Assembly: GCA_017518295.1 (NCBI GenBank)
Contig: JAFWVJ010000022.1
Location: 19,614 to 83,613, forward strand
DNA from: Clostridia bacterium
GTDB taxonomy: Bacteria; Bacillota; Clostridia; TANB77; UBA1234
Direction of reading: 5' to 3'
DNA: 64,000 bases
Below, one piece after another: positions 9,924-51,918 of the stretch. Below the pieces are notes generated by a model. It was not told the DNA's origin, searched no databases, and saw nothing but the letters and a program-made list of their open reading frames with translations. Position 1 is the stretch's first letter; the number at the start of each line of letters is the position of its first letter. Both the position numbers and the translations under genes were made by a program.

Positions 9924-11606
9924 TCAGCGGGGCATAACGGCCGTTGCCTTTTTCTTGGCAGGAGCCTTCTTGGCGGGCACGGCAGGAGCAGCGGGAGCAG
10001 GTTCAGCAGTGGGAGCAGCAGCCTTATTTACCAGGCCGTTTCCGCAGTAGGGACAGAACTTGGCTTCTTCAGGCACTTCTTTGCCACACGCTTTGCACAC
10101 ATTGGCGCCGATCTTGGCACCGCACTTGTGGCAGAACTTTGCGCCGTCCTTCAGAGGTTCCCCACACTTGGGACACACATTGCCGGCTGCTTTGACTTCG
10201 CCACCACATTCGGTGCAGAACTTGACTTCGGGATCATCGAACTTTTTGCCGCAAGAAGTGCAGACATACTGTCCAGGCACAGCGGCGGCCGCGGCTGCGG
10301 GAGCACCGATTCCGGGAATCACGGAAGTAATTCCGTTCATCATATCACCCAGCGGGTTGGCATTGTTGCCACCACCCAGCAGGTTGGAAAGCAGAGTGAT
10401 CTTCATGAAATCATTCATTCCGCCTTCACCGCCATCGCCCATCATCATCATCATCATCATGATGTTGGGGCTGCCATCGGGATTGGTGATACCCAGGCTG
10501 CCGTCTTTGGAAGCCATCAGCATAGGCAGGAACATACCCAGGCCGTTGAAGCTGTCATCGTTGATGTCATCCAGGCTGAACTCAGCCTTGTCATTGTCCA
10601 TCATCTTCATCATCAGCATAGCGCCCAGGACATTGCCGCCCATGTTCTGCTTGGAGTTCGGATCCAGCAGGGTCTTACCATCGAAGGCGATAACTTCAGT
10701 GTAGAAGTTGAAGTCAGGGATCAGGGAGTCGTTGTTCACGAACGTTTCGATAGCACCAGTCTGGGCATTCACGCCAGTGAAGGTGTTATCATTGTTGATG
10801 CTCTGCACCCAGTAGTACTTGCCATCACGCTTGGTCAGCTTGCCCACGGTCAGGTTCTTAACCGGAACCACGATAATGGGGAAGTTACCCAGCTTCAGAT
10901 TCAGCATATCCTTACGGGTGCGGGTCGCGGGGTCGAAAGCATACCATTTTCCGTTTTCGGGATTCTGAACGACGATGCCGGTCAGAGTGGACTTGATCCG
11001 AGGATCCTTGTTGATACCCATTTCCATACCAGAGAAGAGCTTACCGAAACCTTTCATACTAAATCCTCCTTTATTATCCTCAATGCCGTGATATACGGCA
11101 AGAGCTTCTTTGACTTCGTTCAGTTTAAACTGAACTACACAAGTGACGGAACCTTTGTTGAAGTACATGCTGCTGTTGGGAGTAAGTTTGTTAATACCAA
11201 TACATACTTCTTTTTGACTGCAGTAAGGAAACTGCTGACAATCACGTGCTGAGAGCCAATTGGTACTAACATTCACATCAAAGCTAATATAGTCCGACTT
11301 ACGAGCAAGAACTTTTTCGAGCTGTTCGATAAATTCATTGATAGTAAACTCAACAGTTTCAAAGTAAACATGCTGATGAGGACAAAAACTAGAAAAGTTA
11401 ATCAAAAGCTTGTTGGGTTCTCCTGTCGGAATAGTAGTACGAATATTACCAGACCAAAACCGAACAAGAGAATTATCAAAGAATGGAGTAGTGCACGGAC
11501 TTCTACTGTTTACCTCAACCTGATTTGATGGACCATGAGTATAAAGGTCGAACATCCATCTTGTGGGTACAAGTTTCCGGATCAGAGAAGTATCACCCTT
11601 GGACAT
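9924..11606 (-). CDS. Large protein: unknown N-terminal domain, poly-Met/Gly low-complexity linker, four C-terminal zinc-ribbon (CxxCG) repeats, Ala/Pro/Lys tail
   Basis: RBS AGGAGGG before ATG; CxxCG...CxxCG x4; (ATG)7 trinucleotide run encodes MMMMMMM; the C-terminal half is strikingly G+C-rich. Confidence 0.7.
   Translation of the reverse strand: MSKGDTSLIRKLVPTRWMFDLYTHGPSNQVEVNSRSPCTTPFFDNSLVRFWSGNIRTTIPTGEPNKLLINFSSFCPHQHVYFETVEFTINEFIEQLEKVLARKSDYISFDVNVSTNWLSARDCQQFPYCSQKEVCIGINKLTPNSSMYFNKGSVTCVVQFKLNEVKEALAVYHGIEDNKGGFSMKGFGKLFSGMEMGINKDPRIKSTLTGIVVQNPENGKWYAFDPATRTRKDMLNLKLGNFPIIVVPVKNLTVGKLTKRDGKYYWVQSINNDNTFTGVNAQTGAIETFVNNDSLIPDFNFYTEVIAFDGKTLLDPNSKQNMGGNVLGAMLMMKMMDNDKAEFSLDDINDDSFNGLGMFLPMLMASKDGSLGITNPDGSPNIMMMMMMMGDGGEGGMNDFMKITLLSNLLGGGNNANPLGDMMNGITSVIPGIGAPAAAAAAVPGQYVCTSCGKKFDDPEVKFCTECGGEVKAAGNVCPKCGEPLKDGAKFCHKCGAKIGANVCKACGKEVPEEAKFCPYCGNGLVNKAAAPTAEPAPAAPAVPAKKAPAKKKATAVMPR
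10440..10460 (-). repeat. (CAT)7 / (ATG)7 trinucleotide microsatellite inside a coding sequence (poly-Met)
   Basis: catcatcatcatcatcatcat on the top strand, encoding MMMMMMM in 9924..11606. Confidence 0.8.
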
Positions 11607-11779
11607 GTAATCCCTCCTAAAAAATATTTGTCTCTTAAAAGAGACACCGATTAAGTATCATTACGTGAATATTTATACCATGGATTTTACGTTATGTCAA
11701 TATGTTTTTATTAAATAAAAAATAAAAAATGCCGAAATTTCAATATTTTGAAACTTATTAACAAAATATTAAAAACAGC

Positions 11780-11809
11780 TTGACAAATATTATGTTGTTT
11801 TGATATTAT
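11780..11809 (+). promoter_or_regulatory. Sigma-A-type promoter for 11948..12685, preceded by the shared upstream sequence aaaatattaaaaaca
   Basis: TTGACA-17 bp-ATATTA (or 18 bp-TATTAT); 15-nt identity with 6073-6087. Confidence 0.55.
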
Positions 11810-11947
11810 AGAAATGTTATTAACATTTTGAGAATAACATAAGTGCTGATATATCTTGATAATTATGTTAACGCGTGATATAATCGCGTAGCAAAATATA
11901 GTTTTTTGGGTTACCCTTATCTATTTTGAAAGGAGACAAAAACTGGT

Positions 11948-12685
11948 ATGATGGATCCAACTTGGCAAGCAATAATTGGTGTAACAGCACCTATTGTTGT
12001 AATAACTATTCTTGTTTGTTTAACTTCTTACTTTGATAATGGTTGGGTTCTTGGAATTGGTTTTATTGTTTATTTTGTAGGAACATTTTTACTAGCCTGG
12101 CTAGTAGGTCAATCTAATATAGACTTCGTAAGAGAATATCCGTTTAAAAATATTTGTTTTGCATCTTTGATACAACTTGCAATTATGTTTGTCACACTTC
12201 ATGTCTCAGCTTTTATTGAGGAAATGTTTTGCTCTAGTGAGGGGACAGGTTTTGTTAGTTCTTTTATTGTGATTACTATTATAGTTGCAATAATATCTGC
12301 AGCACTTATTAGTAATCACATCAAGACTTTAGATAGAGAGTTTGTAGAAACAGATGAAGTGGTTGAAGTTAGATACGAACTTTCTAGTGATGAAGATGGT
12401 AAGTTTATTTATTATGCATCTAAAAGTGCAACAGAAGAAGGATACTACTTAGTTATCTATAAAGAAAATAATGAATTCAAAACTATGAAAATAAAAGAAT
12501 CTAAACTTTCTATTTTGGATTCTGTTGAATCAGATGAAAAGAATTTTCTTATAGAGAAAAAAGCAATTCATAAAAAGCAATGCACCAACGATGATTCATT
12601 TAAAACAGAAACAAAAGTTGATACTACATATATGATATATGTGCCAGGTGGTGCAGCTAATATAGGATTTGTTACTGCAAAATAA
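11948..12685 (+). CDS. Membrane protein (4 TM) with soluble C-terminal domain
   Basis: Promoter TTGACA-17-ATATTA upstream; RBS AAAGGAG; hydropathy. Confidence 0.6.
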   Translation: MMDPTWQAIIGVTAPIVVITILVCLTSYFDNGWVLGIGFIVYFVGTFLLAWLVGQSNIDFVREYPFKNICFASLIQLAIMFVTLHVSAFIEEMFCSSEGTGFVSSFIVITIIVAIISAALISNHIKTLDREFVETDEVVEVRYELSSDEDGKFIYYASKSATEEGYYLVIYKENNEFKTMKIKESKLSILDSVESDEKNFLIEKKAIHKKQCTNDDSFKTETKVDTTYMIYVPGGAANIGFVTAK

Positions 12686-36988: not shown

Positions 36989-37315
36989 TTGGAAATACGC
37001 AAGTCAAAAAACTATTTGAAGGATTATCAAAAGAAACTGGTAAGACTTCATAAAAACAAAGAAATACAGACTATAGAAAGTATAGAAACATTAATCATAA
37101 ATTCTATCAACTTAAAAGAACTATTACAAAATCCACTCCATATAGTTTATGGGATAGAACAAAAGCATGGTGATTTAAAAGAAATTTTTACAGCAAAAAT
37201 TAATAATAAATTAAGACTTCGAATGCGACCGGTAGGAGAATATCCATATAATTTGGTTGAAATCGAAGCAATAGAATTTTGCGAAATAGATGATAAGCAC
37301 TATGGAGAAGGTTAG
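36989..37315 (+). CDS. Putative HigB-like (RelE/ParE superfamily) toxin
   Basis: TTG start behind a perfect TTGACA-18-TATAAT promoter; C-terminal ...LVEIEAIEFCEIDDKHY resembles the HigB DYH end; next gene is an HTH-XRE protein. Confidence 0.4.
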   Translation: MEIRKSKNYLKDYQKKLVRLHKNKEIQTIESIETLIINSINLKELLQNPLHIVYGIEQKHGDLKEIFTAKINNKLRLRMRPVGEYPYNLVEIEAIEFCEIDDKHYGEG

Positions 37316-37326
37316 GAGGAAGTAGT

Positions 37327-38358
37327 ATGGTTGGTTTTGGAAGTTTCTTAAAAGATTATTTAGAATTTCATAATATTTCACAATCAGAGTTTGCTATTCG
37401 ACTTGGAATTACTCAAAAGCACATGAATGAAATTGCAAATGGCAAAGTTCCTATTACAGCTGAATTAGCAGCAAACATTAGTCGTTTAACTGGTATAGAT
37501 GCAAGCTTTATTATCAATGTTGAAAATGACAAAAAGCTAAAAGAAACTATAATAAATGACTTAGGCACAGAAAAAGCAGTAGATAAAATGCTTAAAGAAA
37601 ATTTTTCTTTAAAAGAACTTAAAGAAAGAGAATGGGTGAAGTTTTTAGATATTACTTCGCCACTTCAAAACTATTTAGATATTCTAAAGTTTTTAAAAAT
37701 AAAGGACTTGTCTATAATTCCATCTTTAGAAAAACAAGTATTATTTAAGAAGGATGGAGAAGACTTTAACAAGCTTGCATTATGGATTGCGCATTGTGAT
37801 GAAATTTGTGCAGATCAAAAAGTTAATGAATATAACAAATTAAATCTTGCATTTTTAGTAGAGGACTTAAATAAACTTGCTTATAAAGGAATTCATGATA
37901 TAAATGAAATACAAGATATTCTTAACAAATATGGATTTTATTTTGTATGTGATAAAGCACTAAAAGGAACAAAAGTAAGAGGTTGCTTTAAAGTAAGAGG
38001 ATTAACACCTACAATTTATAATACAGCAAATTATGCTGGACTAGATTCTCTATATTTTGAGATATTACATGAAATAGGACATTGCAAATCTGATTATAAC
38101 GAAGCAAAGAATAAAACTATAATAGAATCAACAGAAGAAAAGGAAAAAAGAGCAGATAGCTTTGCAATTAACAATATGATAGGTGAAGAAAAATGGATGT
38201 TAATTTTAGACTCTGATTTAACAGAAAAATCACTTTTAGATATTTCTAAAAAGTATAAAATACCTATGTGCTATATTGTTGGAAGATTAGCTAAATTTAA
38301 GAAAATTCCTTATAATAGTACTTTATATAATAAATATGACGTAATAAAAAGCGCATAG
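37327..38358 (+). CDS. HTH-XRE DNA-binding domain fused to ImmA/IrrE-family zinc metallopeptidase
   Basis: N-terminal HTH (QSEFAIRLGITQKHMNEIANG); HEIGH zinc-binding motif (ILHEIGHC). Confidence 0.85.
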   Translation: MVGFGSFLKDYLEFHNISQSEFAIRLGITQKHMNEIANGKVPITAELAANISRLTGIDASFIINVENDKKLKETIINDLGTEKAVDKMLKENFSLKELKEREWVKFLDITSPLQNYLDILKFLKIKDLSIIPSLEKQVLFKKDGEDFNKLALWIAHCDEICADQKVNEYNKLNLAFLVEDLNKLAYKGIHDINEIQDILNKYGFYFVCDKALKGTKVRGCFKVRGLTPTIYNTANYAGLDSLYFEILHEIGHCKSDYNEAKNKTIIESTEEKEKRADSFAINNMIGEEKWMLILDSDLTEKSLLDISKKYKIPMCYIVGRLAKFKKIPYNSTLYNKYDVIKSA

Positions 38359-38453: not shown

Positions 38454-38834
38454 ATGTATAAAATTGTTCGTATAATAGGAATAATCATTAGAAGTCAATT
38501 TTTAGCAAATGCTTTTGAATTTTATTTTGGCAAAGATGGGATGGGCTTGCTGTATGCATATATTATAAATGCTACAATTGGAGAAGCATTACTTTATATG
38601 ACTTCATTTAGTTTGGTAGGAACCTTTTATGAGAAGAATTCATTTCCTACAGTAGGAAGCTTATCATATACGGCATTTTATATATTAAATAATTGTATAT
38701 TAATTGCTTCATGTCTATTATGCAGATATTTCAACTTGCATATAGCAATTTCTATTGTTATATATACAATAATAGAAATGATATTGTATTACTTGTTTTT
38801 TAAAATTAATAACAAATCATATTTTACAAATTAA
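38454..38834 (+). CDS. Small integral membrane protein
   Basis: RBS AAGGAGG; 3-4 TM. Confidence 0.55.
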   Translation: MYKIVRIIGIIIRSQFLANAFEFYFGKDGMGLLYAYIINATIGEALLYMTSFSLVGTFYEKNSFPTVGSLSYTAFYILNNCILIASCLLCRYFNLHIAISIVIYTIIEMILYYLFFKINNKSYFTN

Positions 38835-38846
38835 TGAGGTGATTAC

Positions 38847-39614
38847 ATGGGTAGACCAATTGGAAAATGTCACATTTGTGGAAAAGAATGTGAATTAACA
38901 TATGAACATATTCCACCAAAGAAAGCATATAACCATAAACCTACAAAAATGTATATAGGAAAAGAGTACTTTAAAGATCTTGAAAAAAGAGATATCAAAG
39001 ATACAAGTAAGTTGAGATATACAGATTTTCAAAAAGGAGTAGGTGATTATACTTTATGTGAAAGGTGCAACAGTACTACTGGTAAATGGTATGCAGGAGA
39101 ATATATTAAGATATCTAATGCCATTTATGATTATTTAGGTCATCATCTAGAAGAATTAAAAGATGCTAAATCGGTTGAATTAGATTTTAAAGATGTATAT
39201 CCCTTAAAATTCTTTAAACAAATAATTGCTATGTTTTTGTCTATAATACCAAATGAATATTTGGAAAACCATAAAGAATTAAGGAAATATGTATTAGATA
39301 GAGACAGTGTTGAATTTTCTAACAAAAAATATAGAATAAGTTTGGGACTTTTGAAACAAGATTTTGAAGGATGGTCTGGAATTAATCATTTATTAATGTG
39401 TAATGGAAAAATAAAACTAATATCATTTCTTGTTGTGGCTCCATTTTATTTTGTGTTGGAATTTAATCCGGAAGAAATTGTTTTTGATAATTTGCTTGAT
39501 ATAACTAGTATCGGACACCAATATAACTATAATGATAGGATAGCTTTAAATATAAAGTCAAATCTATTTTTAGAAAGTGAAGTTTTTCCGATAAACTTGT
39601 TTTATCATAAATGA
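38847..39614 (+). CDS. HNH-endonuclease-domain protein
   Basis: CHICGKEC...EHIPPKKAYN...CERCN matches the HNH CxxC...H-N...CxxC architecture. Confidence 0.5.
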   Translation: MGRPIGKCHICGKECELTYEHIPPKKAYNHKPTKMYIGKEYFKDLEKRDIKDTSKLRYTDFQKGVGDYTLCERCNSTTGKWYAGEYIKISNAIYDYLGHHLEELKDAKSVELDFKDVYPLKFFKQIIAMFLSIIPNEYLENHKELRKYVLDRDSVEFSNKKYRISLGLLKQDFEGWSGINHLLMCNGKIKLISFLVVAPFYFVLEFNPEEIVFDNLLDITSIGHQYNYNDRIALNIKSNLFLESEVFPINLFYHK

Positions 39615-39764
39615 AATATGCATTTTTAAGCTCTAAATAATGATCGAAAATGTAAAAACCGTAGTTGACAATAATTGAAAATGCATTTTCGAGTATTATG
39701 ATATCATATGAAAACGTAAGCCAGTAATACCAATACTTTTATCAAAAATATTTTTTCAAAAATG

Positions 39765-39793
39765 TTGACATAATTGTTGCTACACAATATAAT
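39765..39793 (+). promoter_or_regulatory. Sigma-A-type promoter for the HEPN (pseudo)gene
   Basis: TTGACA-17 bp-TATAAT (perfect consensus). Confidence 0.7.
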
Positions 39794-39828
39794 AACTATA
39801 CAATAATTCAAAGGAGAAAATGAACATT

Positions 39829-40369
39829 ATGTATGAACTTAATTCTGATAATATAATGAATAAATTTGGTGATGACATTCGAAAAATGATAGGTGACTTT
39901 TCTATATTGTGGAATCTGTATGAAAAAAGTCTTTTTAAGGATGCAGAGGAAAAATATAGAATAATAAATAATAAGAGAAAAAAATGATAAGATTTTTCAA
40001 GAGAACATACATGATGGTATTATAAAAATAAAAAGTGAAAGCAGTTTTTTTCAAAATAACGAAAATGAAATAGACAAATGCTTTTTAAATTTAAATTCTT
40101 TTCTTCGAAACTATTATCATAATGATTCATATAAATATAGTGCCCAAGGTATAATTGATTTTTTTAGGGTAAATGATAATGAAAATGCAAAAAAAGAAGT
40201 TGAAAACTTGTTTGATAATCCTGTTGAGCAATGGGGGTCAAAAGAGAAGTTTCATTTATTATTAATTGTTATTTATAGGGTTAGAAACAATATGTTTCAT
40301 GGAGAAAAAGATGTTATAAAGTTAAAAGATCAAAAGAGCTTTTTTGCATATGTAATAGCATGCTTCTAA
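39829..40369 (+). pseudogene. HEPN-domain (Abi/RiboL-PSP-like) gene interrupted by a frameshift in an A7 homopolymer (39978-39984)
   Basis: Perfect promoter TTGACA-17-TATAAT; N-terminal 52-aa ORF stops at 39985; the +1 frame continues to 40369 and encodes the HEPN Rx4-6H motif (YRVRNNMFHG). Deleting one A restores a single ORF. Confidence 0.55.
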
Positions 40370-40477
40370 TGATTATTGATAATATAGATATAAAGTTGCA
40401 AAACTTATTGTAGAACAAAAATCCTTTCTTTTATCAAATTAGTGTGAATTTCTTAATAGAAAGGAGAAATTAAAATG

Positions 40478-40501
40478 AATAAAAGAATAAAAGAATAAAA
40501 G
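40478..40501 (+). repeat. Tandem 8-bp repeat (AATAAAAG)x3 between a strong RBS/ATG and the GGCT-like ORF
   Basis: Three perfect units; the unit is not a multiple of 3, so copy number sets the reading frame. Confidence 0.85.
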
Positions 40502-40545
40502 AATTATTCAGAGGTGCCAATGTAATCATAGATTACCCTGGCCAA

Positions 40546-41193
40546 TTGTACACAAATGATGAAGCAGATATTTGCGTAGAAACAAAATACGCACAAGAAT
40601 TAAGCATCATTTATTTCCAATTAAGAGATTACTTTGTTAAAGAAATCGATTATTTGAACAAATATGATTTCTATGGCAGCTTGGCTGAAAACTACAATAG
40701 GCTAATAAAAAAGAATGGAGATATTAAAGAAAATCTTCAAACATTTTTATTAACTATAAAAACAGCCTTATACTTTGCTTATGGATTAAACATGGATAAG
40801 GAACAAATGAAAGAAAGATGCCCTGGAGCTATTCCTGTTGGTATAGCAACATTGGACAATTACAAATTTGTTTTAGACTCTGCAGGAACAGCTAGTGTTG
40901 TTCCTGAAAAAGGTTCAAAAGTTGAAGGATTACTTTGGCTAATTAATACAGATGGGGAAAAGGCACTAGATAGATATGAAGGCACAAATTTGACAACTCC
41001 ATGCTATATTAAGAAACACTTAGAAATCGAATTCAACAATGAAAAATCTAAGGCTTTAGTCTATGTTTCGAATAGAGACATTATAGACAAGCCTATTAGA
41101 AAAGACTACATCAATAGAGTAGTCCAAGCAGCAAAAGATGTTAGACTTTCATCAAAGTATATCAAGGATAATCTTGATAAATATACAAATTAA
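40546..41193 (+). CDS. Gamma-glutamyl cyclotransferase (GGCT/AIG2)-like protein with N-terminal extension
   Basis: YFAYGLNMD...E GGCT motif; the in-window frame has only a TTG start with no RBS. An upstream ATG with a strong RBS is out of frame because of a 3-unit 8-bp repeat (see findings). Confidence 0.7.
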   Translation: MYTNDEADICVETKYAQELSIIYFQLRDYFVKEIDYLNKYDFYGSLAENYNRLIKKNGDIKENLQTFLLTIKTALYFAYGLNMDKEQMKERCPGAIPVGIATLDNYKFVLDSAGTASVVPEKGSKVEGLLWLINTDGEKALDRYEGTNLTTPCYIKKHLEIEFNNEKSKALVYVSNRDIIDKPIRKDYINRVVQAAKDVRLSSKYIKDNLDKYTN

Positions 41194-41196
41194 CTA

Positions 41197-41233
41197 AAAA
41201 TAGACCATTGTATAAGCAATGGTCTATTTTTAT
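41197..41233. terminator. Bidirectional intrinsic terminator
   Basis: atagaccattgtataagcaatggtctat flanked by A- and T-runs. Confidence 0.75.
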
Positions 41234-41520
41234 AAATCTATTATACTATAAACTTCAACATTATTCGCAGAAAATGCTTCAAAGTCAACTACTTTCATAT
41301 CAAAACCGCCTATATTTGGTGAAACTTCAAAAATGTTTTCTTTTGTCATAATACTACCAACATGATTTACGAAAACAGATGGTTCAATAGAGGCAATGAA
41401 TGCGATTGAATTTTTTTCGCTGCCATCATAGCCTCTTAAATCATTTATGAAAATTCCTTGATTTAAATATTTTTGTTTTTCTTCATTTATATATCTTTTA
41501 CTATCAATATAATAATTCAT
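41230..41520 (-). CDS. Hypothetical small protein
   Basis: RBS GTGAGG; bidirectional terminator shared with GGCT-like gene. Confidence 0.5.
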   Translation of the reverse strand: MNYYIDSKRYINEEKQKYLNQGIFINDLRGYDGSEKNSIAFIASIEPSVFVNHVGSIMTKENIFEVSPNIGGFDMKVVDFEAFSANNVEVYSIIDL

Positions 41521-41656
41521 AATAAAAACCTCACTTTTTGAAGATTATATAATAAAGTTTTTAGATCGTAAATATCTGTCTTATGGAAACTTAATTTTTC
41601 TTAGTATGTTCGCTAGATCTTTACAATTTGTTGTGCTAATCTAGTTGTGAAATAAA

Positions 41657-42577
41657 ATGAAGGAAGAAATAATTATGGAAACTATAGAAAAAGCAAGACC
41701 TTTTGTTAAGTGGGCTGGAGGTAAAGCAGGACTTATTCCTCAAATAACAAAGTACTATCCAGATGCTTTAAAATCAGGTCAAATAGAAAGATATATTGAA
41801 CCATTTCTTGGTGGGGGAGCAATTCTTTTAGATGTACTTCAAAAGTATGATGTAAAGGAAGCCTATGCTTATGATACAAATCAAGATTTGGTTAATGCAT
41901 ATAATGTGATAAAAACGGATGTAGATAATCTTATTAAGAAATTGCAAAAATATGAAAAAGAATATTTGCCATTGGATGAAGAAGAAAGAAAAGAGTACTA
42001 CTACGATTTAAGAGATGAATATAATTCTGCAGAAGTTAAGTCTGGAAAGCTATCATATAAAAGAGCAGCACAGTTTATATTCTTAAACAAAACATGCTTT
42101 AATGGTTTGTACAGAGTAAATGCAAGTGGTGATTTCAATGTGCCAATGGGTAATTATAAAAATCCGACAATTTGCGATACTGAAAACTTACTAAAGCTAT
42201 CTAGATTACTACAAAATGTTGAAATTATCTGTGGAGATTACCATGATACATTAGAGTTAGTTAATCCAAAAACTTTTGTGTATTTTGATCCACCTTATAG
42301 ACCATTACCGGATACTAATGGTTTTACTTCATACACAAAGGATGACTTCAATGACGAAGACCAAAAGAGGTTGGGAGAATTCTATAAGCAACTAAGTCAA
42401 AAAGATGCAAAATTGATGCTAAGTAATTCTAATCCAAAGAACACAAATGAAAGTGATACATTCTTTGATGACTTATACAAAGGCTTTTATATAAATGAAG
42501 TACAGGCGAATAGAGCAATTAATTCAGATGGCGCAAAGAGAGGCAAAATTTCTGAGCTACTGATAATTAATTATTAG
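41657..42577 (+). CDS. Dam-like N6-adenine DNA methyltransferase (DpnM-like, GATC)
   Basis: FVKWAGGK motif and DPPY catalytic motif (VYFDPPYRPL). Confidence 0.9.
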   Translation: MKEEIIMETIEKARPFVKWAGGKAGLIPQITKYYPDALKSGQIERYIEPFLGGGAILLDVLQKYDVKEAYAYDTNQDLVNAYNVIKTDVDNLIKKLQKYEKEYLPLDEEERKEYYYDLRDEYNSAEVKSGKLSYKRAAQFIFLNKTCFNGLYRVNASGDFNVPMGNYKNPTICDTENLLKLSRLLQNVEIICGDYHDTLELVNPKTFVYFDPPYRPLPDTNGFTSYTKDDFNDEDQKRLGEFYKQLSQKDAKLMLSNSNPKNTNESDTFFDDLYKGFYINEVQANRAINSDGAKRGKISELLIINY

Positions 42578-42585
42578 AGGTTACA

Positions 42586-43380
42586 ATGAAAGAAAAAACT
42601 TATTATTTTAATAAAAAAGATTTTAAGTTAATAAATAAAGATACATTAAAAGCTACTAAAAATATGAAGGATAAAACATTTGATATGATTTTTGCAGATC
42701 CTCCATATTTTTTGTCTAATAGTGGCATAACTTGTAGTGGCGGTAAGATGGTAAGTGTAAATAAAGGCGAGTGGGATAAAGCAAAGTCGCTTGAAGACAA
42801 GCATGAGTTCAACAGAGAGTGGATTAGAGAGTGTTATAGAATTTTAAAAGATGATGGAACGATTTGGATAAGTGGAACACTTCACAATATTTATTCTATT
42901 GGTATGGCACTTGAAGAAGAAGGTTTTAAAATCATTAATAATATTACATGGCAAAAAACAAACCCACCACCAAACTTAGCTTGCAAGACTTTTACACATT
43001 CAACAGAAACAGTATTGTGGGCTAGGAAAGATATTAAAGGAGCAAAATATAAATTTAACTATAAATTGATGAAAGAGCTAAATGGCAACAAGCAAATGAA
43101 AGATGTATGGACAACTTCTTTGACAAAACCATCAGAGAAGAAGTTTGGCAAGCATCCTACACAAAAACCATTAGAGTTGCTTGAAAAAATTGTACTAGCT
43201 TCAACTAATGAAAATGATTTGATATTAGATCCTTTTAGTGGAAGCGGTACTACTGGAATTGCAGCTGCAATGCATAATAGAAAATATATTGGAATTGATT
43301 TGGATAAAAGCTATTTAGATATTTCTATTAAGAGATATGAAAGCTTAAATGGAGGACTAGATGGAGAAAAGAAATTTTGA
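42586..43380 (+). CDS. Second N6-adenine DNA methyltransferase (DpnA-like, beta class)
   Basis: DPPY (IFADPPYF) near N-terminus; AdoMet motif DPFSGSGTTG at C-terminus. Confidence 0.85.
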   Translation: MKEKTYYFNKKDFKLINKDTLKATKNMKDKTFDMIFADPPYFLSNSGITCSGGKMVSVNKGEWDKAKSLEDKHEFNREWIRECYRILKDDGTIWISGTLHNIYSIGMALEEEGFKIINNITWQKTNPPPNLACKTFTHSTETVLWARKDIKGAKYKFNYKLMKELNGNKQMKDVWTTSLTKPSEKKFGKHPTQKPLELLEKIVLASTNENDLILDPFSGSGTTGIAAAMHNRKYIGIDLDKSYLDISIKRYESLNGGLDGEKKF

Positions 43381-44209
43381 TGAATGGATTGGTGGATTTA
43401 GAGAGAGCATTGCAAATTATAAATACTATGTTGATTTTGATGTTGTTTATGAAAATGTCGAAAAATTCAAGGTTGAATTGAATATTTTGAACAGCTTGAT
43501 AGGTTCGAAGAATATAGAAAAGGAGTTCTTGGATATTATTAAGCAATATCCTAATACTTTGAAATGTGTACCATTTTTATTGGCTGTTAGAAGATTGGAA
43601 ATTTTAGCTCAAGATGAAGACATGCAATACATTTATAAATTTGCTCAAATGAATTACGCTCCAGAACAATATGCTGTATTGATGAAAGAGACAGGATTAT
43701 TTGAATTGCTTGAAAACCATTTGGTAAGTAGTTTGATAGACTATGCGCTTGGCGTTGAAGTAGGATTAAACTCAAATGGAAGAAAAAATCGTGGTGGGCA
43801 TTTGATGGAAGATTTAGTCGAAAGCCACATAAAAAAAGCTGGATTTAAAGAGTATTATAAAGAGATGTACTTAAATGAGATTGAAGAAAAATGGGGACTC
43901 GATTTATCGAGTATTTCAGGAGATGGAACTTCAACAAAGAGATTTGATTTTGTTATAAAAACCGACAATATGGTTTATGGAATTGAGACTAATTTTTATG
44001 CTTCTGGTGGTTCTAAACTTAATGAAACAGCTAGAAGTTATAAGATGATAGCTGAAGAAGCCAAGAATATTAAAGAATTCAAATTTGTTTGGATTACTGA
44101 TGGAAGTGGCTGGGTGTCAGCTAGAAGAAACTTGAAAGAGACATTTGATGTGTTAGAAAATATATACTGCATAAAAGACTTAGAAGAGGGAGTACTTAAG
44201 AAATTATAA
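43361..44209 (+). CDS. DpnII-family type II restriction endonuclease (GATC)
   Basis: Size, position after two GATC-type methylases and family-like sequence; overlaps the methylase gene by 20 bp. Confidence 0.8.
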   Translation: MEKRNFDEWIGGFRESIANYKYYVDFDVVYENVEKFKVELNILNSLIGSKNIEKEFLDIIKQYPNTLKCVPFLLAVRRLEILAQDEDMQYIYKFAQMNYAPEQYAVLMKETGLFELLENHLVSSLIDYALGVEVGLNSNGRKNRGGHLMEDLVESHIKKAGFKEYYKEMYLNEIEEKWGLDLSSISGDGTSTKRFDFVIKTDNMVYGIETNFYASGGSKLNETARSYKMIAEEAKNIKEFKFVWITDGSGWVSARRNLKETFDVLENIYCIKDLEEGVLKKL

Positions 44210-45149: not shown

Positions 45150-45262
45150 GAGGCTCGCAACCGCGCCGATGTTTTTCACTATGATATCCCTACCGCCATT
45201 CAAGATTTACCAAATGTTGCTGAAGATAACGAAGAATACCATACATAATAGGAGTGATTCTT

Positions 45263-45427
45263 ATGCCATTCTATATGATTGAAATTAATGAAAACCTTTC
45301 TAGAATTATAGATATTGAAGCGGAGGATGAAGAATCTACTTTGAAGATTGCTAGAGAGAAATATAAAAATGGAGAAATAGTTTTAGATAGTGATGACTAT
45401 GTTGATACAACGTTCACTGTTCAATAG
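45263..45427 (+). CDS. DpnD/PcfM-like small protein (54 aa), below the ORF-track size cutoff
   Basis: RBS AGGAG; ...IEAEDEESTLKIAREKY...DSDDYVDTTFTVQ fits the DpnD/PcfM family pattern; sits next to the DpnII-type system as in pneumococcal dpn cassettes. Confidence 0.4.
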   Translation: MPFYMIEINENLSRIIDIEAEDEESTLKIAREKYKNGEIVLDSDDYVDTTFTVQ

Positions 45428-45449
45428 AATAAGAGAGGATGTGATAATA

Positions 45450-45944
45450 ATGGCTGAATTAAGAGATTTGTATGATATAAATAGTAATAAGACAGATAAA
45501 ACATATATGAAAGGTGATCCGATTCCCGAAGGTTATTATCCAATGGTGGTAATGGTTGTTATTAGAAATTCTAAAGGTGAATTTTTAATGCAAAAAAGAG
45601 TGGAATCTAAAGGTGGAGATTGGGGAGTAACTGGTGGTCACCCTAAATCTGGAGAAACGCCTATGGAAGGTATTATTACCGAAGTTAAAGAAGAATTAGG
45701 ATTAGATTTTTCTAATGAAAGATTTGTTGAATATGATTCTGGTTGTGACGGAAAAGATTGTTACAAGATGTATTTTGTTACTAAAGATATAGATATTAGC
45801 GAAATCACAATTCAAGAGGAAGAGTTAAGTGAAGTAAGATGGTTTACCATGGATGAATTAAAAAGTATGGTAGAGTCTGGCGAACTAAACGAAGACCAAA
45901 TCGCATGCTTTAATAAAGTGTGCAAGTTTCTTGGTCGCAAATGA
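45450..45944 (+). CDS. Nudix hydrolase (paralog of the C-terminal domain of 50923..51918)
   Basis: Nudix box GGHPKSGETPMEGIITEVKEELG; about 85 percent nucleotide identity to 51437-51918. Confidence 0.85.
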   Translation: MAELRDLYDINSNKTDKTYMKGDPIPEGYYPMVVMVVIRNSKGEFLMQKRVESKGGDWGVTGGHPKSGETPMEGIITEVKEELGLDFSNERFVEYDSGCDGKDCYKMYFVTKDIDISEITIQEEELSEVRWFTMDELKSMVESGELNEDQIACFNKVCKFLGRK

Positions 45945-46003: not shown

Positions 46004-46147
46004 ATGTCAAAATTATATATTATTACTGGTCCTGCTGGAGTGGGCAAGAGTACTATTTCAAAAAAGATTGCAGAGAGCCTTTCTAAATCGGTTTTAATTG
46101 AAGGTGATGATATTTATAGTCAAGTTATAGAGATTAAAAGGAGATGA
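46004..46147 (+). pseudogene. Truncated duplicate of P-loop kinase gene 48515..49024 (first about 45 codons only)
   Basis: About 95 percent nucleotide identity over about 105 bp to 48530-48640, then diverges and stops at the amylase RBS. Confidence 0.6.
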
Positions 46148-48514: not shown

Positions 48515-49024
48515 ATGCCAACCCTATACATTATTACTGGCCCTGCTGGAGTGGGTAAGAGTACAATTTCAAAAAAGATTGCAGAGAGCCTTTCTAAATC
48601 GGTTTTAATAGAAGGTGACGATATATATAACCATGTTGTAGGTAGCTATGTTTCACCTTGGAAAGAAGGCAATCACTTAGATATTTTTTGGAAGGTTTCT
48701 GTTGATGTTATTAAAGATTATTTAGATGCAGGTTATGATGTAGTTTTTAATTATATTATAAATCCTTCAAATCTAAATTTTCTAAAGCAAAGTTTAAAAG
48801 ACTACAATAAAAGATTTATAGTTTTACTAGTTGATGAAGAGACTTTGCTTAAAAGAGATGCTATGCGTCCGGAAGATTGTCAGATGAAAGAACGCTGCAT
48901 TGTGCTTTTAAATCATTTTAAAGAGCATAATTACGATGAAAAGTTTATTATAGATACTGGTAAGACTAGTATAGAAGATTCAGCTAAACAAGCTATAGAA
49001 GGTGATAGATTTTTAATGATATAA
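48515..49024 (+). CDS. P-loop NTPase / small-molecule kinase-like protein
   Basis: Walker A GPAGVGKST; ATG 48515 with AAAGGAGG RBS preferred over ORF-track 48482. Confidence 0.65.
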   Translation: MPTLYIITGPAGVGKSTISKKIAESLSKSVLIEGDDIYNHVVGSYVSPWKEGNHLDIFWKVSVDVIKDYLDAGYDVVFNYIINPSNLNFLKQSLKDYNKRFIVLLVDEETLLKRDAMRPEDCQMKERCIVLLNHFKEHNYDEKFIIDTGKTSIEDSAKQAIEGDRFLMI

Positions 49025-50922: not shown

Positions 50923-51918
50923 TTGAAACACAAAATTTTTAATGAAGATAATTTAAAAGATGAAGATATGGATGGCTCTGTTGTTAGAGTTAAAGCTTTT
51001 ATCATTAATAATAATGACGAAGTTATTATGGCTTCGTCTAATGGTGGTGTTCAATTAATTGGCGGACATGTCGAAGATGGAGAGTCAGAAGTTGAAACTC
51101 TAAAGCGTGAGATATTAGAAGAAGCTGGTATCGAAGTTTCAAATGAAGAAATTTCGAATGTCTTTTACGAAGTTAGGCACTATACAAAAAATTATTATAA
51201 TTCTGGTAAAAACGTTTTATCTATAATTCATTATTATTTAGTTCATACAGATAAATCTCCAAATCTAGAAAAAGTGCATCGCACAAGTCAAGAAAAAAGA
51301 TATGCTTTTGAATTAAAATATATTCCTTTAGATTCTTTTGAAGAAGTTTTAAGCGAATATCTTAATAACGACAAAGAAATAAACAGAATAATTGCTGCTG
51401 AAACTATAGAAGCATTTAAAAATATTCCTGAGCTAAGAGATTTGTATGATATAAACAGTAATAAAACAGATAAAACATATAGAAAAGGTGATAAGGTTCC
51501 TGAAGGTTATTATCCTATGGTAGTTATGGTTGTAATTAGAAATTCTAAGGGCGAATTTTTAATGCAAAAAAGAGTAGAGTCTAAAGGCGGAGATTGGGGA
51601 GTAACAGGTGGTCATCCAAAATCTGGAGAAACTCCTATTGAAGGAATAATTACCGAAGTAAAAGAAGAATTAGGATTAGATTTTTCTAATGAGAATTTTA
51701 TCGAATATGATTCTGGTTGTGATGGAAAAGATTGCTACAAGATGTACTTTGTTACAAAAGATGTAGATATAAACGACATCAAAATTCAAGAAGAAGAGCT
51801 TACTGAAGTTAGATGGTTTACTATGGATGAACTAAAAAGCATGGTAGATTCTGGAGAATTAAATGAAGATCAAATAGCATGCTTTAATAAAGTGTGTGAT
51901 TTTTTAAATAAAAAATAA
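50923..51918 (+). CDS. Tandem double Nudix-domain hydrolase
   Basis: TTG start with GGAGG RBS; two Nudix boxes (GGHVEDGESEVETLKREILEEAG and GGHPKSGETPIEGIITEVKEELG). Confidence 0.8.
   Translation: MKHKIFNEDNLKDEDMDGSVVRVKAFIINNNDEVIMASSNGGVQLIGGHVEDGESEVETLKREILEEAGIEVSNEEISNVFYEVRHYTKNYYNSGKNVLSIIHYYLVHTDKSPNLEKVHRTSQEKRYAFELKYIPLDSFEEVLSEYLNNDKEINRIIAAETIEAFKNIPELRDLYDINSNKTDKTYRKGDKVPEGYYPMVVMVVIRNSKGEFLMQKRVESKGGDWGVTGGHPKSGETPIEGIITEVKEELGLDFSNENFIEYDSGCDGKDCYKMYFVTKDVDINDIKIQEEELTEVRWFTMDELKSMVDSGELNEDQIACFNKVCDFLNKK

Follow-up and report, generated by a model that had tools for sequence, protein, structure and literature searches.

Directly behind the start codon of a GGCT/AIG2-like gene, the window (the whole 64-kb stretch of DNA that was analysed) carries three tandem copies of an 8-bp unit, and the question that this locus raises is whether the tract is a tuned genetic switch or the trace of a recent knock-out. 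In an earlier note on the same DNA, the repeat had been taken to set the reading frame of the N-terminus of the gene product, and it had been put forward as a phase-variation switch that is OFF with three units and ON with two. The elements at the 5'-end of the gene are as follows.

40460-40466, plus strand: ribosome-binding site (RBS) AAAGGAG, 8 nt before the ATG; an equivalent AGAAAGGA is found 8-9 nt before the ATG in the related loci L001, L005 and L092
40475-40477, plus strand: native start codon of the GGCT-like gene; the homolog N-termini MNEMFRGA, MNNLFRGA and MNKLFAGA align to the product from this ATG
40478-40501, plus strand: simple sequence repeat (SSR) (AATAAAAG)x3, exact, covering codons 2-9; two units are in frame, three are predicted to be null
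40496-40498, plus strand: premature TAA from the third repeat unit, closing a 7-codon ORF
40546-41193, plus strand: body of the GGCT/AIG2-like gene, called as a 215-aa ORF from a TTG; the intact gene would be 40475-41193 minus 8 nt

The coordinates, the spacing of 8 and the order of RBS, ATG and repeat given in the earlier note all hold. The AAT that follows the third copy matches bases 1-3 of a further unit, and Tandem Repeats Finder reports the tract at 40471-40504 with a period of 8, 4.1 copies, 96% matches and a score of 59. From the ATG, the three-unit sequence reads ATG AAT AAA AGA ATA AAA GAA TAA, i.e. MNKRIKE followed by a stop, and the sequenced allele is thus OFF after seven codons, as had been proposed. 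Alleles with 0-7 repeat units were constructed in silico and translated. Only n = 2 was found to be intact, giving 236 aa in one frame with the TTG-40546 ORF, while every other number of units gave 7-22 aa. The zero-unit and one-unit alleles are out of frame and, as the junction between units 2 and 3 creates the TAA, the same stop closes all alleles with three or more units, including the four-unit allele that had likewise been predicted to be OFF. The GGCT-like gene therefore has a single ON state, n = 2, and expansion of the repeat leads away from it, a feature absent from the earlier note. In two respects the tract resembles a contingency locus, being an uninterrupted non-triplet tandem repeat inside an ORF in which a change in unit number toggles (in silico) between an intact and a truncated product; the ON states recurring at every third unit in such loci are absent here, all alleles with n>=3 being OFF.

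The tract is the sole exact repeat with at least three copies of a unit of at least 7 bp in the 64-kb window, and a comparable repeat arose in none of 200 second-order Markov simulations. For the 16-mer made of two units, the expectation was 0.09 per shuffle. The repeat exceeds chance, including for AT-rich DNA.

A homolog search over 5.8 billion protein clusters gave 17 full-length relatives of 229-268 aa, all of which possess the segment encoded upstream of TTG 40546, and this bears out the claim that the repeat sets the frame of the native N-terminus. The segment includes an invariant Gly-Ala pair (G11/A12, LFxGAG), and the AF2 model of P0001 has a beta-strand at residues 10-13, upstream of the residue matching the TTG. 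The RBS-ATG arrangement is kept in L001 and L092. As the relatives share both this N-terminus and an RBS 8-9 nt before the ATG, ATG 40475 is the orthologous, native start of the GGCT-like gene. No purine-rich RBS precedes TTG 40546, as already noted. Lacking an RBS and strand 1, the TTG-40546 ORF is a truncated gene-caller remnant in which the conserved N-terminal strand of the structural model is missing.

The two-unit allele reads MNK-RIKE-LFRGA, which amounts to a 12-nt insertion compared with the MNKLF or MNNLF of the relatives. Because these read MNK directly onto LF, the two-unit form is a lineage-specific insertion of 12 nt; the repeat is absent from the relatives L001, L005, L092 and L099.

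The 215-aa and 236-aa products were then looked up as exact sequences in public data. The former (P0121) is deposited as MBR3281604.1 under the name 'MAG: gamma-glutamylcyclotransferase [Clostridia bacterium]'. The latter, predicted for two units (P0122), is encoded by a single contig, ERZ27256870:k141_911852 (122,580 bp), which aligns with window positions 30475-51193 along 20,711 bp without a mismatch, the only difference being an 8-bp gap that corresponds to one repeat unit. The two-unit ON allele foreseen in the earlier note thus exists, and the comparison of repeat number among related strains that it had suggested did not return three units throughout. The allele state was inspected in the DNA of six assemblies. 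Two units are present in one (L004/L098), and three in five further assemblies (L002/L008, L003/L010, L009, L011) from four other samples (ERZ28018792, ERZ27256850, ERZ28653974 and SRR12529319), which differ from the window by 0-4 SNPs over 10-20 kb; no four-unit allele occurs among the six. At least 26 contigs (40 index blocks) carry the truncated 215-aa product versus 1 contig for the intact product, though alleles with n = 1 or n>=4 would share the 215-aa call and could hide among the 20 contigs beyond those inspected. A scan of JGI metagenomes with a gapped pattern spanning the repeat gave no match, and with a conserved coding 44-mer it gave the known sister-lineage contig alone. Scanning of GTDB genomes with the family alignment returned 80 loci, none from the species of the window and with L012 and L039 as the only full-length relatives; the YFAYGLNM of the window does not match the scan seed YFAYGSNM.

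There is thus an on/off polymorphism in an essentially clonal background and, as in contingency loci, repeat number differs between close strains, here with 0 SNPs in 20,711 bp. Slippage at the repeat is the mechanism that we infer for the difference in copy number. A single mutational event suffices for the data, presumably from two to three units, and reversion from three to two is equally compatible, since L092, at only 79% identity, is too distant to polarise the direction. For the SNPs of L009 and L010 with L092 as outgroup, one of three covered sites is informative and makes the state of the window ancestral.

The surroundings of the gene bear on whether such an allele is better read as a lesion or as a switch position, and include the following elements.

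39765-39793, plus strand: perfect sigma-70 promoter, TTGACA-17-TATAAT (12/12 matches), the sole perfect match in 39600-41700
39820-40369, plus strand: HEPN-like gene, first in the putative operon, a pseudogene by +1 frameshift (frame 0 stops at 39985-39987, and the +1 frame then runs to 40369)
39978-39984, plus strand: A7 homopolymer, the frameshift site of the HEPN-like gene; A6 would be in frame
41195-41232, either strand: hairpin with a 16-bp stem and T/A runs on both sides, a predicted bidirectional intrinsic terminator that closes the putative operon

With a promoter before the first gene and a terminator after the second, the HEPN-like and GGCT-like genes look like one operon. ATG 39820 of the HEPN-like gene is preceded by the same kind of RBS as the GGCT-like gene, and both RBSs are intact. 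The A6 version of the HEPN-like gene would encode 182 aa; its alignment with the 203-aa homolog of L092, which is intact, spans the frameshift site at 38% identity (E 8e-34), and 22 intact homologs of 182-203 aa were found. In 12 of 12 family members the sequence RVRNNMFHG is invariant, and it contains RNNMFH (R-N-x3-H), which conforms to the Rx4-6H motif of HEPN proteins. The protein has no match in PADLOC or Pfam. The window and all six other assemblies, the two-unit contig included, have A7, and no A6 version was found in a collection of 15 billion proteins. Runs of this kind are ordinary here, with 32 A7 and 13 T7 in 64 kb. Both the HEPN-like gene (by A7) and the GGCT-like gene (by the third unit) are therefore broken where their homologs are continuous and intact, as expected of pseudogenes.

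The GGCT-like protein exceeds the curated cut-offs of PF06094 (49.8 bits, cut-off 22.8) and PF13772 (38.4 bits, cut-off 27) and has the GGCT beta-barrel fold; its N-terminal domain has no match in PADLOC or Pfam. Oakley et al. in 2008 are said to have described YGS(N/L) as the substrate-pocket motif and a Glu as the catalytic residue of GGCT. The Ser of the corresponding YFAYGSNM (YGSNM) is invariant in 17 of the 17 full-length homologs aligned, and both the two-unit and the three-unit allele have Leu in its place (Leu102, codon 102 of the 236-aa product, window 40778-40780). The other signature residue, the invariant Glu166 in LDRYEG, is retained in the window. The signature is therefore broken at the Ser and kept at the Glu, and the enzyme may have been impaired before the frameshift arose. 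Conserved-site changes specific to the lineage of the window number four, versus two in the sister lineage. Compared with the sister lineage, dN/dS amounts to 0.11-0.15, the level also seen among members of that lineage, and the rise toward 1 expected of relaxed selection was not seen; with dN/dS still low, any inactivation would have to be recent.

On balance, we give slightly better than even odds to the three-unit allele being a tandem duplication that recently inactivated the gene, within a decaying module of two genes in a defence island; such a knock-out is more probable than a tuned genetic switch. The in-frame state of this lineage is the two-unit one, MNK-RIKE-LFRGA, in which replication slippage would have duplicated one unit in tandem. 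In the resulting three-unit allele translation would end after seven codons and leave a null gene, a loss of function inferred from the reading frame. The event would be the latest hit in an operon already decaying by A7 in the HEPN-like partner and by Leu102, and it would be recent because promoter, RBS and terminator are intact, dN/dS is 0.11-0.15 and the alleles are otherwise identical over 20.7 kb. If exactly one unit were lost, the ORF would be whole again; the lesion is thus reversible in principle, probably at a modest rate. That reversion takes place only at the rate of an ordinary hotspot belongs to the reading favoured here and shares its probability.

The frameshift of the HEPN-like partner in every assembly and the change of Ser102 to Leu in both alleles argue for decay. 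Against it argue the absence as yet of relaxed selection, the perfect consensus promoter and the two intact RBSs, the position of the repeat at the usual site of phase-variable tracts together with its statistically exceptional character and lineage-specific origin, and the zero-SNP background, as would be expected if the mutation rate were locally elevated.

The main rival reading is a genuine phase-variable contingency locus, at which frequent slipped-strand mispairing moves the gene between ON (two units) and OFF (three units) and selection keeps the switch. We regard this as possible but rather doubtful. The tract does follow the start codon directly, is non-triplet and toggles the frame with a change of one unit, but a copy number of 2-3 is the minimum tract length, only just reaching the threshold of three units set for octanucleotides in surveys of H. 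influenzae (PMC2651432). It is unique in the window, beyond chance and lineage-specific, but n = 2 is the sole ON state and expansion moves irreversibly away from it. Two alleles are found on an identical 20.7-kb background, yet OFF is nearly fixed (at least 26 contigs against 1) and the six assemblies lack a four-unit allele. Intact expression signals, and purifying selection until recently, have to be set against a partner gene whose frameshift is fixed and an invariant motif residue that is altered even in the ON allele. SSR switching rates reportedly drop steeply as copy number declines (De Bolle 2000 and Bayliss 2012, listed in PMC11868660). SSR switching is nevertheless known for defence genes (phasevarions), a setting in which ON/OFF switching of costly genes is familiar (PMC7383803), and low-copy tandem repeats in M. 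tuberculosis can vary at 1e-2 to 1e-3 (PMC12817950). By a strict definition of phase variation, a change at a single locus must be reversible and reach a minimum switching rate (PMC11868660); the single-locus change alone is demonstrated here. Of the switch proposed at the outset, a frame-toggling polymorphism that occurs in nature has thus stood, while its tuning by selection is disfavoured by the low copy number, the single ON state, the excess of OFF contigs, the dead partner and Leu102.

Several known systems invite comparison. The SSR loci of H. influenzae, Neisseria and Campylobacter (tetranucleotides in lic1 and mod; hepta- and octanucleotides, PMC2651432) have the same non-triplet repeat in the 5'-part of an ORF, a change by one unit in either direction likewise shifts the frame and switches the gene between off and on, and copy number varies between very close strains. 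Confirmed tracts commonly have many more copies than the 2-3 of the locus described here, which has only one ON state since the unit makes an in-frame TAA from the third copy on. Those loci switch surface structures, whereas this gene is cytoplasmic and enzyme-like and is a candidate switch known from assemblies alone. The organism also differs, being an uncultured lineage of Clostridia known as MAGs from the ruminant gut; two of the contig records carry what we take to be labels of ruminant-gut MAG studies.

Capsule ON/OFF variation in pneumococci was reportedly traced by Waite et al. in 2001 to spontaneous tandem duplications in the cap3A/cps genes. The logic is the same, in that ON is the unduplicated state, OFF is a short frameshifting duplication and precise excision restores function; in pneumococci many positions are subject to duplication and reversion has been measured, whereas here one pre-existing two-copy 8-mer is involved and the alleles are known from assemblies. 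A further parallel is offered by M. tuberculosis, with its variation of low-copy tandem repeats (PMC12817950) and its homopolymer frameshifts, as in glpK (bioRxiv 10.1101/717272). There, too, two- and three-copy variants occur in near-isogenic populations and frameshift alleles have been interpreted as reversible adaptation. However, the mycobacterial repeats are promoter elements of ~50 bp that modulate transcription and vary inside single cultures (PMC12817950), whereas the present repeat is an 8-bp coding tract for which the variation observed is between samples. With ordinary pseudogenisation the locus shares the two frameshifts at slippage-prone sequence (A7 and the three-fold 8-mer) in adjacent genes of one operon, as well as the substitution in an invariant motif and the near-fixation of OFF. 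It differs in that one of the lesions is polymorphic on an identical background, the expression signals are perfect and dN/dS is low.

A broader version of the switch would extend to both genes, each with its own slippage tract (A7 and the three-fold 8-mer), in an undescribed HEPN-like/GGCT-like conflict module. The setting is suggestive: the operon lies in a defence island, and the earlier description of the gene as coding for a GGCT/AIG2-like enzyme adjacent to such an island agrees with the Pfam profiles and with the PADLOC and restriction-modification (RM) neighbours. The principal neighbours are listed below.

37327-38358: 343-aa protein, HTH (N-terminal) plus Peptidase_U49-like (PADLOC PD-Lambda-2_B, 4.6e-19)
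41657-44209: complete DpnII-type RM cassette, comprising a D12 Dam-like methylase, a second N6/N4 methylase and the DpnII endonuclease

The cassette is followed by a gene for a 283-297-aa protein of unknown function and then by a DpnD-PcfM family gene; a small gene at ~45260-45430 was placed from the annotation of L008, and a NERD-domain protein is encoded further upstream in the island. A mobile-element origin of the operon was also considered, and blastn gave no match in plasmid or phage collections.

Related loci with genes drawn from the HEPN-like, HTH and GGCT-fold families were located at these positions.

L092: 2951-4333
L094: 5001-7969
L095: 5001-7957
L096: 25-2981
L012: 917-2746
L093: 3868-5780
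L099: 3025-4690

L092 has an intact pair of a 203-aa HEPN-like and a 233-aa GGCT-like gene, in this order, directly upstream of a DpnII cassette whose DNA is 79% identical to that of the window. In the more distant relatives L012, L093 and L099, a ~300-aa HTH protein is the partner of the GGCT protein, and in L094, L095 and L096 such an HTH protein is encoded between the HEPN-like gene and that of a double-GGACT protein. The neighbours in L092, L094 and L099 are RM systems (DpnII, MmeI) or GmrSD genes, L093 has a SNF2-type helicase upstream, and L012 is without evident defence neighbours. The network thus joins three families: HEPN-like proteins (~200 aa), HTH proteins (~300 aa) and GGCT-fold proteins, the last with either an N-domain plus GGCT or a double GGACT. 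Neither Pfam, PADLOC v2 nor the literature found contains this three-family association, and no literature link between GGCT and HEPN was found. On gene content, the neighbourhood is a candidate for an uncharacterised conflict system. That it also operates as a reversible two-gene switch is, in our estimate, unlikely. If true, cells of one clonal gut population would differ in the combination of ON and OFF settings for a toxic RNase-like effector and for its GGCT-fold partner, adding a layer of bet-hedging to an uncharacterised defence system of rumen Clostridia.

Even less probable is that the three-unit allele is still expressed, with MNKRIKE as a leader peptide and either reinitiation at TTG 40546 or a -1 slip of tRNA-Lys on A_AAA_G (40489-40493). 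A -1 slip at AUA AAA G would reach the GGCT frame before the TAA, but there is no canonical X_XXY_YYZ heptamer at the site. The TTG ORF is open for 215 aa, but it has no RBS, and its product is without the invariant Gly-Ala and strand 1 of the N-domain. The region of the RBS and ATG is unstructured; downstream, the structure is not significant (fold z = -2.0) and no Rfam element was found. The homologs are all single continuous ORFs, so that no conservation of such a device is seen. A programmed frameshift or RNA element was accordingly set aside as unsupported. That the difference in repeat number arose from assembly collapse or expansion or from sequencing error is scarcely credible even with the two-unit sequence known from one metagenome assembly alone, since the 28-bp periodic stretch is shorter than k plus one unit for any k>=21 and, from its sequence, should offer no repeated k-mer to a de Bruijn assembler, 8-bp indels are not made by short-read platforms, three units are reproduced in five assemblies and the two-unit contig shows no other difference along 20.7 kb; the allele difference is therefore taken to be real.

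Taken by itself, the locus is one more short-repeat frameshift polymorphism, and a clean case in that public metagenomes yielded the ON allele that had been predicted. It shows that tracts of so few copies do change in uncultured bacteria of the gut in nature, and that gene calling turns them into truncated 'genes' without any warning, the 215-aa product having been deposited as a gamma-glutamylcyclotransferase. The gene pair is the more useful by-product, since it brings to light a small family, so far without annotation, whose HEPN-type RNxxxH motif is invariant and whose members are repeatedly linked to GGCT-fold proteins, either directly or by way of the ~300-aa HTH protein.

Some further features of the window were recorded. 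Before the 343-aa protein, a 108-aa ORF at 36989-37315 has a faint match to ParE-like toxins. The 255-aa protein encoded at 38847-39614 has a CxxC...H N-terminus (CHICGKECELTYEH) and faint matches to HNH and Endonuclease VII (E ~0.1-0.2), and together with a 126-aa membrane-like ORF at 38454-38834 it may represent a further gene pair of the defence island. In L010 (12899-13017, window 43444 onward), the match of XIEF21-1_SAMN15830038_METAG-scaffold_3098 to the window ends inside the DpnII endonuclease gene, at the contig end, which points either to rearrangement at the strain level or to chimerism at the end of the scaffold. Two copies of a NUDIX gene, at 45454-45922 and 51428-51896, share 88% identity over 470 bp, and a paralogous segment of 105 bp is repeated at 46014-46118 and 48525-48629 with 93% identity. 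Last, a local GC peak of 0.44, against ~0.30 elsewhere, with reversed GC skew was found at 10001-12000, at the position of a 560-aa minus-strand ORF (9924-11606).
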